Shown here piece after piece: positions 28,394 through 30,536 of a stretch of DNA of 64,000 bases. This DNA is from Escherichia coli. Lineage in GTDB: Bacteria > Pseudomonadota > Gammaproteobacteria > Enterobacterales > Enterobacteriaceae. Location: the NCBI RefSeq assembly GCF_001677475.2, contig NZ_CP015229.1; one strand, given 5' to 3'. The position numbers were made by a program, and so were the translations under genes. The notes beneath the pieces are model-generated. The model had not been told where the DNA came from and made no database searches. It worked only from the letters and a program-made list of their open reading frames with translations. Every line of letters begins with the position of its first letter. Within the stretch, counting starts at the first letter, position 1.

Positions 28394-29200
28394 TTACCCC
28401 TGACGCGCCGCTTTCGCCATCATCTTCTTCAGCGCATGAGAAACCGCAACAAAACCAAAGGTGGCGGTCACCATCGTCGCGGCACCAAAGCCAGATGCAC
28501 AATCCATCCGCTTTGGCCCTTCTGCCGTGGCTTTCATCGCACACACCGTACCGTCTGACTGCGGATACACCAATGCTTCGGTAGAGAACACGCAATCCAC
28601 ACCGAGCTTACCTTTACTGTTTTTCACTACGCCAAAATCGCTTTTCAGGCGCTCGCGCAACTTCGCCGCCAACGGGTCCTGAATCGTTTTCGCCAGATCG
28701 GTAACCTGAATCTGCGTCGGGTCAATCTGCCCACCAGCGCCACCAGTCGTGACCAGCGGGATTTTATTGCGCCGACAATAAGCAATCAGCGCCGCTTTGG
28801 GCCGTACACTATCAATAGCATCAATCACGTACGAATAACCGGCATTCATATATTGCGCTACGTTATCCGGCGTCACGAAGTCATCCACCACCGTTACACG
28901 GCACTCCGGGTTAATCTGGCGAATACGCTCCGCCATTACTTCCGCTTTTGCCAGCCCGACGTTATCGCGCAGAGCGTGAATTTGCCGATTGGTATTGGTG
29001 ACGCACACATCATCCATATCGATAAGCGTGATTGCGCCAATCCCCGTGCGCGCTAGCGCTTCCGCCGCCCAGGAACCGACACCGCCAATACCCACCACAC
29101 AAATATGCGCGTCAGCAAACAGTTGCAATGCTTTTTCACCATACAGACGCGCTGTGCCACCAAAACGCTGACGCCATGCATCACTAATTACCACAGACAT
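28394..29200 (-). CDS. tcdA: tRNA threonylcarbamoyladenosine dehydratase (ThiF/MoeB E1-like), 268 aa
   Basis: ORF 28394..29200; GxGxxG nucleotide-binding motif (VVGIGGVGSWAAEALAR). Confidence 0.9.
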   Translation of the reverse strand: MSVVISDAWRQRFGGTARLYGEKALQLFADAHICVVGIGGVGSWAAEALARTGIGAITLIDMDDVCVTNTNRQIHALRDNVGLAKAEVMAERIRQINPECRVTVVDDFVTPDNVAQYMNAGYSYVIDAIDSVRPKAALIAYCRRNKIPLVTTGGAGGQIDPTQIQVTDLAKTIQDPLAAKLRERLKSDFGVVKNSKGKLGVDCVFSTEALVYPQSDGTVCAMKATAEGPKRMDCASGFGAATMVTATFGFVAVSHALKKMMAKAARQG

Positions 29201-29253
29201 AGCACCTCAGAATTAAAAAGGGCGAGGTTATCCCTCACCCTAAACGCATAAAT

Positions 29254-29360
29254 GCCTGATGCGCTACGCTTATCAGGCCTACATAACTCCTGCAATATTT
29301 TGGATTTGCATGAGTTGTAGGCCGGATAAGGCGTTCACGCCGCATCCGGCATGAACCACG
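29254..29360. repeat. BIME: two REP units in opposite orientation
   Basis: gcctgatgcgctacgcttatcaggcctac (29254..29282) and gtaggccggataaggcgttcacgccgcatccggca (29326..29360). Confidence 0.8.
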
Positions 29361-29438
29361 CGCACTTAGTCAATAATCAGGATGAGAGGTTATCCCTCAC
29401 CCTGTCGTATCCGTCAAAACGGTATACAGAATATCACA

Positions 29439-30536
29439 TCAGCCGCTAAAGACGTTACCTGCGCCCGGGGCGGTTTTCAGCACCCAGACACGTCCATAGT
29501 GGTTGTACCAACCTGCGCGGTGTCCGGCTTCCGGCCCGATCCCTTGATAGATATCGAAGTGTTGGCCTTTGATTGCGCCACCGACATCCAGCGCCACCAT
29601 CAGACGCAATTCGTACTGACCGTTAAATTTGCCGTTATTATCCAGCAGCGGCACTTCTGCCAGCAAGGTAGTACCTGGCGGAATAATTGAACGATCAGAG
29701 GCAACAGAAGCACGGCCAACCAGCGGCACCGCACTTGCCCCTTTCACCGGTGCAAAAGATTGCGGTTTAAAGAAGACGAAAGACGGGTTCTGTTCAAGCA
29801 GCTCGCGAACCTCGGCTTCACTGTGTGTTTCGCCCCAGTGACGAATCGCCTGCATCGACATATCTTCTTTTTTCACTTCGCCACGGTCGATCAGCACCTT
29901 ACCAATGCTGCGATAGGCATGACCGTTTTTCCCTGCATAGCTGAAAAAGTTAAGCGGACTGCCATCACCAAAGTCGATATACCCGCTACCCTGCACATCC
30001 ATAATGAAGTTATCCATCAGGGAGTTACTGTAAGCGAGAATATATTTATCACTCAGCGCTCCTGCGTAGATCTCCGCACGAGACGGCAGACGACCACGTT
30101 TTTGCGGCATACGGTAAATCGGATACTGGAACTCGCCCTGGCGGGTATGGCGTGCCTGAATTACCGGCGTGTAATAGCCTGTAAACTGCACGTTACCATA
30201 GTTGTCGGCACCTTCCATCTGCCAGGCATCAATGCCGAACTGGCGCATATTGCGGGTATCACCGCCTGCGCGCAGCCACTCTTGCACCGCGTTATAAACA
30301 TTACTCTGGTTGCCATACAGACGCGGTGACGAATTACGGATATGGTTAATTTGCTCGGCAAAATCACCGGCGTTAATCGGCGCGCCAACGGCATCTGGCT
30401 GGTTCACCAGAGAGAAAGGCTGGGTAAATTTCCCGTCTTTATATTGCTGTCCGCGATCGGTTGGTTTGGAAGAGCAGGCGGCAAGCATTGCCACAACCGT
30501 GCCCATAAGAAGGTACTTTACCCAACGTCCTTTCAT
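29439..30536 (-). CDS. mltA: Membrane-bound lytic murein transglycosylase A (lipoprotein), 365 aa
   Basis: Track ORF 29439..30818 is over-extended through the tRNA genes; true start at Met 30536 (MKGRWVKYLLMGTVVAMLAACSS lipobox). Confidence 0.92.
   Translation of the reverse strand: MKGRWVKYLLMGTVVAMLAACSSKPTDRGQQYKDGKFTQPFSLVNQPDAVGAPINAGDFAEQINHIRNSSPRLYGNQSNVYNAVQEWLRAGGDTRNMRQFGIDAWQMEGADNYGNVQFTGYYTPVIQARHTRQGEFQYPIYRMPQKRGRLPSRAEIYAGALSDKYILAYSNSLMDNFIMDVQGSGYIDFGDGSPLNFFSYAGKNGHAYRSIGKVLIDRGEVKKEDMSMQAIRHWGETHSEAEVRELLEQNPSFVFFKPQSFAPVKGASAVPLVGRASVASDRSIIPPGTTLLAEVPLLDNNGKFNGQYELRLMVALDVGGAIKGQHFDIYQGIGPEAGHRAGWYNHYGRVWVLKTAPGAGNVFSG

Follow-up and report, generated by a model that had tools for sequence, protein, structure and literature searches.

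A BIME-1 element at the predicted mltA terminator of Escherichia coli and the hairpin repeats that flank it

The BIME-1 element in the spacer between tcdA and mltA of Escherichia coli has probably inserted at the intrinsic terminator of mltA and thereby duplicated the terminator stem-loop, leaving one copy on each side. The stem-loop is present twice around the element, alleles without the element retain it once, outgroups possess a single hairpin, and flanking repeats of the same kind recur in the BIME-1 family. From this, we infer that it was the insertion event itself which produced the duplication. The single locus is ordinary for the family; the family signature is a useful, possibly under-reported clue to the insertion and loss of BIME-1.

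The duplicated stem-loop and the element between its copies

The 18-mer GAGGTTATCCCTCACCCT occurs on the plus strand at positions 29224-29241 and again at 29386-29403 of the window (the whole 64-kb stretch of DNA that was analysed), with a start-to-start spacing of 162. The 144 bp between the copies (29242-29385) contain two inverted REP units, as the first-pass annotation had described for this perfect direct repeat. With up to three mismatches allowed and both strands searched, these two were the only matches in the window; dinucleotide-preserving shuffles gave an expected number of 0.00 matches, and two matches were obtained in 0 of 100 shuffles, which rules out a chance repeat. A search for further copies, likewise proposed in the first-pass annotation, uncovered no dispersed repeat: the other loci fetched, about 0.9 Mb in all, contain the 18-mer at tcdA-mltA only, and a 67-nt query across the hairpin region matched a median of 1 and a maximum of 2 places per E. 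coli genome. The hairpin is therefore specific to this locus, and a dispersed repeat family as the source of the 18-mer was ruled out by the same two results. The features of the region are as follows, with the evidence in brackets.

28394-29200, minus strand: tcdA coding sequence, with start codon 29200-29198 and Shine-Dalgarno sequence GAGGTG at 29208-29203 (open reading frame list, RefSeq annotation of matching E. coli records)
29201-29438, minus strand: mltA 3' untranslated region and spacer to tcdA (whole interval)
29215-29241, minus strand: predicted mltA intrinsic terminator with repeat copy 1 (terminator scan, RNA fold, empty alleles)
29224-29241, plus strand: direct repeat copy 1, GAGGTTATCCCTCACCCT, tcdA-proximal (repeat search, shuffles)
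29242-29252, plus strand: truncated left outer motif AAACGCATAAA (paralogue alignment, family listing)
29253-29282, plus strand: Y-type REP TGCCTGATGCGCTACGCTTATCAGGCCTAC, inverted, CTAC head toward the linker (invariant in paralogue alignment)
29283-29316, plus strand: L linker, 34 bp, with a predicted IHF-site-type motif (motif match, Rfam ES036)
29317-29351, plus strand: Z1-type REP GTAGGCCGGATAAGGCGTTCACGCCGCATCCGGCA (invariant in paralogue alignment)
29352-29385, plus strand: right outer motif TGAACCACGCGCACTTAGTCAATAATCAGGATGA (paralogue alignment, family listing)
29386-29403, plus strand: direct repeat copy 2, GAGGTTATCCCTCACCCT, mltA-proximal (repeat search, shuffles)
29439-29441, minus strand: mltA stop codon (open reading frame list, matching E. 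coli records)

What the first-pass annotation overlooked is that the 18-mer is, on the minus strand, most of the predicted mltA terminator stem-loop. This stem-loop comprises 23 nt (AGGGTGAGG-GATAA-CCTCGCCCT, 29241-29219 on the minus strand) and is followed by a T tract at 29218-29215. According to the terminator scan, the stem of the copy-1 hairpin has 9 pairs, 6 of them G-C, and its RNA fold reaches -17.2 kcal/mol (z = -4.75). Copy 2 lies on the minus strand inside a hairpin at 29404-29378 (-16.9 kcal/mol) with the T tract absent, and the scan called a terminator at 29241-29219 only. Compared with the general form of an intrinsic terminator, i.e., a G+C-rich stem-loop plus a T/U tract, copy 1 possesses both parts and copy 2 is a hairpin without the tract, which is not terminator-like. 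As the hairpin is situated beyond the end of mltA, with 14 nt separating its T tract from the tcdA start codon, it is the predicted intrinsic terminator of mltA, and a single hairpin like copy 1 is kept in empty alleles. With copy 1 being a terminator stem-loop and copy 2 a hairpin, the repeat represents a duplicated terminator stem-loop. On the mltA transcript, the order is a hairpin without U tract, Z1 REP, linker, Y REP and a hairpin with U tract; because the latter is distal to BIME-1, termination is predicted to be kept, with the element residing within the 3' untranslated region. No sigma-70-like promoter was found in 28900-29700. The transcription of tcdA may depend on read-through of the mltA terminator and, in occupied alleles, of BIME-1.

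The element itself is, on its alignment with paralogues, a standard and long-known BIME-1 with a truncated left end. The architecture of these elements, also termed RIP or RIB, is defined in PMC3333891, and the tcdA-mltA copy agrees with it in one Y and one Z1 REP placed head to head around an L linker of 34-35 bp, and in its occurrence as a single extragenic copy at the 3' end of a transcription unit. The Y REP ends with CCTAC and the Z1 REP starts with GTAGG; the Y end ATCAGGCCTAC closes at 29282, the Z1 head GTAGGCCGGATAAGGCG opens at 29317, and both REPs are invariant in the alignment with the entD-fepA and yqjG-yqjF copies. A single unit is found here; on the mltA transcript it follows the stop codon and precedes the terminator. 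Differences from the BIME-1 standard concern the linker and the outer motifs. The linker motif CTGCAATATTTTGGATTTGCA deviates from the common CTGCAATATATTGAATTTGCA by 2 mismatches in 21, one of them in the IHF-like core. Among the conserved outer motifs (GAGACTGATGACAAACG... / ...TTGTCAGCAATCTG), the right one is present as the counterpart of the canonical ...TGAACAAAGCGCACTTTGTCAGCAATCTG, with the last approximately 8 nt atypical, and the left one is truncated to AAACGCATAAA, the canonical first 12-13 nt, (T)GAGACTGATGAC, being absent. Since the ends of this copy are atypical, its original junctions are not exactly readable. Paralogues in genomes with an empty tcdA-mltA site (e.g., at entD-fepA and yqjG-yqjF) cover positions 1-137 at 87-89% identity, which identifies the 144 bp as one repeated unit.

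The window holds no other BIME-1 copy for an internal comparison; a further REP head, an exact GTAGGCCGGATAAGGCG, is located at 1267-1283 on the minus strand, far from the element. Rfam ES036 matches 29275-29317 on the minus strand with 46.6 bits, against a gathering score of 37.6, and a match of naRNA4 to the Z1 REP (29320-29356, plus strand) remained below threshold. Both families, ES036 (CssrF sRNA) and naRNA4, appear to be built on BIME/REP sequence. In the K-12 MG1655 record, no repeat feature is listed in the tcdA-mltA spacer.

Occupied and empty alleles

Among 5425 complete E. coli genomes with a match, 2754 carry the occupied allele, i.e., the full 621-bp query region. In sampled genomes without the full query the same flanks are 459 bp apart, a difference of exactly 162 bp (144 + 18). 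The empty alleles fetched from the strains Nissle, 6EVA and Nord122 feature one intact hairpin and no BIME; they contain ...AAAAAGGG[C/T]GAGGTTA[T/C]CCCTCACCCTGTC... and, in the form given for these three strains, read AAAAAGGG[C/T]GAGGTTA[T/C]CCCTCACCCT[G/A]TC.... When the window sequence with 162 bp deleted in silico was used as a 67-nt empty-site query, the best match was at least 99% identical in 406 genomes, and the sampled 100% matches were single 67-bp pieces and hence empty alleles. The window's own allele minus 162 bp thus exists as an exact 67-nt empty allele. The resemblance to a target-site duplication that the first-pass annotation had noted is thereby supported, as one-copy, BIME-free alleles that are exactly 162 bp shorter occur both in E. 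fergusonii and in about half of the E. coli genomes, and the comparison across Escherichia that it had suggested did recover these one-hairpin alleles in both species.

Beyond E. coli, the tcdA-mltA spacer of E. fergusonii contains one hairpin and no BIME, that of Salmonella one homologous hairpin (GGTGAGGTTATTCCTCACC) together with an unrelated palindrome, and that of Citrobacter a different terminator and its own REP pair. The single hairpin of E. fergusonii and Salmonella indicates that this state is ancestral and that the duplication arrived with the BIME. Tandem terminators do occur in bacteria, and it might be supposed that the mltA terminator was already tandemly duplicated before BIME-1 inserted between the copies with no duplication of its own, two events which on one branch are inseparable in these data. 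Such a history is highly improbable, since one hairpin is present in all empty alleles seen (E. coli, E. fergusonii and Salmonella, as well as yqjG-yqjF and uvrB-yvcK, treated below) and since each of the many independent loci where the repeat adjoins both ends of the element would need its own prior duplication. No allele with two hairpins and no BIME was encountered among the tcdA-mltA, yqjG-yqjF and uvrB-yvcK alleles examined.

The duplication was probably longer at first than the perfect repeat, a point also overlooked in the first-pass annotation. In K-12-type occupied alleles, the right copy GTGAGGTTACCCCTCACCCT is identical over 20 nt plus the right flank to the Nissle-type empty allele, so that the original duplication measured at least 20 bp; probably it was the whole 23-bp hairpin, and the perfect 18-mers would be its surviving core. 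The two copies agree at 18 of 18 positions in the window strain, 17 of 18 in K-12 and 13 of 18 in E. albertii. The latter species shares the insertion together with its unusual left junction, CCCT|AAACGCATAAATG, and has a decayed right copy (GAGATTATTTCTCACTCT) and a partly deleted right outer motif. The BIME body of E. albertii is 93% identical to the window, and the flanks toward tcdA and mltA are 91% and 90% identical, respectively, values that fit vertical descent of the insertion from a common ancestor with E. coli. As the insertion and its junction are common to both species, the insertion is old. A perfect 18/18 identity is somewhat unexpected if the insertion predates the split of E. 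coli and E. albertii, and this speaks against the preferred explanation.

The occupied E. coli alleles, with 2771 records at 95% identity or more over 143 of the 144 nt, are by this similarity all one insertion. Both right-flank haplotypes were seen, each in occupied and in empty form. The simplest reading would be one old insertion followed by repeated precise loss via the direct repeats, with the direction of gain and loss within E. coli deduced from the alleles; the pattern of empty and occupied alleles may also stem from allele exchange by recombination. Among the sampled strains, K-12, B and O157 are occupied and Nissle, F11, ST131, O26 and O103 are empty, and with the phylogroups to which we take these strains to belong, more than one event is needed.

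Precise loss would proceed by slippage or recombination between the direct repeats around the palindromic body and would regenerate an empty one-hairpin allele. Because direct repeats permit such a loss, it most simply explains the empty allele in about half of E. coli. The recombination footprint that had been offered in the first-pass annotation as a second reading of the repeat stands to this extent, namely that the 18-mers are a plausible recombination or slippage substrate for loss of the element. The precise excision of Tn10 and Tn5 is known to occur by transposase-independent slippage between flanking direct repeats and to be promoted by inverted repeats. BIME-1 loci are similar in having direct repeats around a palindromic body and an empty allele that keeps exactly one copy, and differ in the length of the repeats (18-26 bp versus 9 bp) and in a body of only about 150 bp. 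Excision at BIME-1 loci is deduced here from population data.

Flanking hairpins at other BIME-1 loci

Three further loci were compared. Of 5425 genomes, 89 carry the BIME-1 between yqjG and yqjF; the empty allele, shorter by 178 bp, has one hairpin, AAAAACGAGGAG-CTTC-CTCCTCGTTTTTT. Three different loops occur at this locus (L007 versus L133), namely CTTC in the allele lacking the element and, where the element is present, CGTTT to its left and TGTTC to its right, an example of the fast change in the loops of duplicated hairpins. What appears to be one yqjG-yqjF insertion, with flanking hairpin and variant bases in common, occurs in Escherichia sp. E1V33 (L125) and in E. coli CUVET19-1704 (L007), and in only 1.6% of E. 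coli genomes; this reflects either a trans-species polymorphism or introgression. At uvrB-yvcK, the empty alleles (L134/L136) feature one hairpin. Of the occupied alleles, that of E69 (L104) retains both hairpin copies and that of K-12 DH1 (L135) has lost the left one; this allelic series illustrates the decay of flanking repeats. An empty site with one repeat copy and no element, the general mark of a target-site duplication, was hence found at tcdA-mltA, yqjG-yqjF and uvrB-yvcK. The entD-fepA copy (L005/L073) has no flanking hairpin repeat and is nearly fixed (5345 of 5425 genomes), whereas the three repeat-flanked or hairpin-associated loci are polymorphic, with 2754, 89 and 3676 of 5425 genomes occupied. 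The near-fixed copy without repeat fits repeat-dependent loss as a single case.

When species-representative genomes were scanned for ATCAGGCCTAC-N(20-45)-GTAGGCCGGATAAGGCG, at least 120 loci emerged. The survey set consisted of the 84 BIME-1-type copies among the matches listed that possess a 33-36-bp linker and sufficient flanks, drawn from Escherichia and Pseudocitrobacter. In 30 of these 84 listed copies, the best flank-to-flank direct repeat exceeded the 99th percentile of permuted left/right pairs; some of the 30 are a few tandem arrays, not target hairpins. For strong repeats, again among the matches listed, the end of the left copy and the start of the right copy typically lie 42 nt to the left and 47 nt to the right of the core, respectively. 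Canonical copies, defined by the presence of both outer motifs, account for 38 of the 84 matches listed, and 20 of these 38 have a repeat with a score of at least 8 abutting both element ends, compared with 0.3% of 1500 permuted pairs. Under positional criteria, an anchored repeat was identified in 21 of the 84 copies among the matches listed. These 21 repeats are 16-31 bp long (median 21), different in sequence at every locus, and fold with a median hairpin energy of -13.3 kcal/mol. In 18 of the 21, the right copy leads into a T run, and in 15, the left copy comes after an A run.

Judged by stem, energy and adjoining runs, the flanking repeats are ordinary, often bidirectional, terminator hairpins. 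Among the matches listed, the junctions are constant and can be written as [A run] hairpin | GAGACTGATGAC ... CAGCAATCTG | hairpin [T run], so that in either direction of transcription a hairpin plus T run ends up distal to the element. The hairpin pairs in these matches are direct, with asymmetric loops in register and rare loop inversions. An inverted duplication of the palindrome was rejected because the asymmetric loops are nearly all direct, including those at tcdA-mltA (TTATC in both copies). One loop inversion, AA versus TT, distinguishes L061 from L087, two apparently orthologous Pseudocitrobacter loci with the same hairpin and flanks; the inverted loop of L061 looks like a later inversion. 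The first-pass annotation had regarded flanking repeats as unusual for REP/BIME elements, a statement that finds no support in the BIME-1 subclass, which the family survey showed to be commonly flanked by direct repeats of a local hairpin.

The signature is present in only a quarter to half of the surveyed copies among the matches listed, and within these it is better preserved in Pseudocitrobacter than in E. coli proper. By a strict positional test, E. coli strain SCPM-O-B-8794 had it in 0 of 9 copies, with decayed copies being visible. Some loci showed additional peculiarities. The locus L014 (6976-7480) is a tandem array of three BIME-1-type units, and L034 of E. albertii has a direct repeat of about 56-59 bp containing outer motif, hairpin and outer motif; both look like local amplification through flanking repeats. 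BIME-1-type sequence was further recorded in unrelated taxa, i.e., in a 262-bp contig of Desulfosporosinus sp. OT (L035), a Bacteroidales MAG (L036, closely similar to the E. albertii locus L012) and a 278-bp contig of Oceanobacillus saliphilus (L117), where it is probably enterobacterial sequence from assembly contamination.

The survey bears on two further explanations of the repeat. The hairpins might be terminal direct repeats carried by the element rather than host sequence, as their position exactly at both element ends would lead one to expect; there is very little chance of this, given that the hairpin sequence is locus-specific, that empty alleles and outgroups keep one copy in place and that the 18-mer occurs at this locus only. 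Carriage by the element was accordingly rejected, being contradicted by the empty sites and the locus-specific sequences. A chance match or convergent hairpin evolution would be in keeping with both copies being hairpins and with nothing further; with no shuffle out of 100 yielding two matches, an exact 162-bp indel and a recurrence in the family against 0.3% of permuted pairs, its probability is next to nil.

Insertion at hairpins and its meaning for the BIME-1 family

According to the preferred explanation, a BIME-1, i.e., a non-coding unit of about 150 bp in which a Y REP and a Z1 REP enclose an IHF-type L linker and short outer motifs form the ends, would have inserted at the mltA terminator, and the insertion would have duplicated the terminator stem-loop to give one copy on each side of the element. 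The strand breaks would fall at both feet of the extruded target hairpin or no more than about 3 nt away. In an extruded hairpin, the two feet would be adjacent in space and a hairpin-length apart in sequence, and cuts at these feet would let the length of the duplication follow the structure of the target. We know of no enzyme that makes target duplications with a length following a hairpin. DDE transposases generate fixed short duplications, and a transposase with a fixed stagger was rejected in view of the repeat length, which varies between 16 and 31 bp among the matches listed.

The mobilisation of REPINs is attributed to the REP-associated tyrosine transposase, which is related to the IS200/IS605 transposases. 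BIME-1 resembles the REPIN/RAYT system as an inverted REP doublet with GTAG heads that is non-autonomous and present in many copies per genome; a GTAG tetranucleotide was found 5' of each REP. The outer motifs of BIME-1, in contrast, are conserved beyond the REP doublet. According to PMC2817692, transposases of the IS200/IS605 type leave no sizeable duplication, whereas the target hairpin is duplicated here, with a repeat of 18 bp at this locus and 16-31 bp in the family (matches listed). Likewise, the in vitro cleavage by TnpA-REP described in PMC3333891 takes place at C|T, whereas the junctions observed here are ...stem-T|GAGAC and CTG|A-stem. The REP-associated transposase cutting at C|T was rejected as the source of the junctions because these sequences do not fit.

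Other known systems provide partial analogies. Like MITEs, BIME-1 elements are short and non-coding, with a palindromic body, flanking direct repeats and empty sites in relatives, and the family possesses imperfect terminal inverted repeats (GAGACTGATGAC versus the right-end complement CAGATTGCTGAC, 9/12), of which the tcdA-mltA copy lacks the left end. The duplication of a MITE is, however, short, fixed and set by the transposase, whereas that of BIME-1 corresponds to the target hairpin and varies from 16 to 31 bp with it (matches listed). To our knowledge, no autonomous partner with BIME-1 ends has been described, and among prokaryotic integrations only those by CRISPR Cas1-Cas2 and casposons (14-15 bp) are well known for duplicating a long target that is often palindromic. 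Spacer integration in E. coli also uses IHF. The comparison is an analogy only, since no Cas1-like enzyme is implicated and the targets of BIME-1 are unrelated terminators instead of one fixed repeat.

The main rival to a duplicating insertion is a replicative template switch without transposase, in which a nascent strand stalls at the hairpin, copies a BIME-1 located elsewhere and returns upstream of its point of departure, the hairpin thereby being copied a second time. This would lead to the same end product, with a stalled-segment duplication of hairpin length, and the A/T runs beside the hairpins could supply microhomology. The frequent differences between the loops of the two copies, together with inversions (L061/L087; yqjG-yqjF), suggest such a process, and some copies, that of tcdA-mltA included, have variable ends. 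It is nevertheless considered unlikely, as the ends are very constant (GAGACTGATGAC ... CAGCAATCTG) and fixed at 42 and 47 nt from the core among the matches listed, which is expected of defined element termini and not of microhomology-guided switching; moreover, no chimeric hairpins of donor and target were seen.

Extending insertion with hairpin duplication to the family leads to a more tentative proposal, which we consider conceivable although rather doubtful: BIME-1 would be a discrete mobile unit of about 152 bp (GAGACTGATGAC...CAGCAATCTG) that inserts specifically at terminator hairpins and duplicates the whole hairpin, with the length of the duplication set by the structure. If true, this would be a structure-directed integration not yet described, in which an extruded hairpin is cut at both its feet. 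Bending of the element by IHF may then take part, as may an enzyme that is not the REP-associated transposase, or this transposase acting unlike it does in vitro. The duplication would moreover preserve termination in both directions and equip the element for precise excision.

The spread of REP and BIME sequences has been a question since the 1980s. A 2026 preprint (10.64898/2026.03.23.713779) describes the mechanism of their insertion in vivo as still not fully established, and according to PMC1187871, which cites Bachellier et al. (1997), the presence or absence of BIME-1 among isolates is already known. In the papers covered by full-text literature searches, there was no description of direct repeats flanking BIME-1, of a duplication of terminator hairpins or of a structure-dependent length; older work (Boccard and Prentki, 1993; Bachellier et al., 1997, Genetics 145:551) may already mention flanking repeats.

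For the annotation of these genomes, the second hairpin copy should not be named an independent terminator or a new repeat family. BIME-1 insertions are predicted to spare terminators, as each direction of transcription meets a hairpin and then a T run past the element, and the presence/absence polymorphism of BIME-1 loci would be explained by the precise loss that the repeats allow. The three-part footprint of a terminator-hairpin target, a duplication of the whole hairpin and constant ends gives the question of REP/BIME spread a testable content, and could guide the design of target plasmids, of substrates for cleavage in vitro and of screens that look for new insertions in populations.
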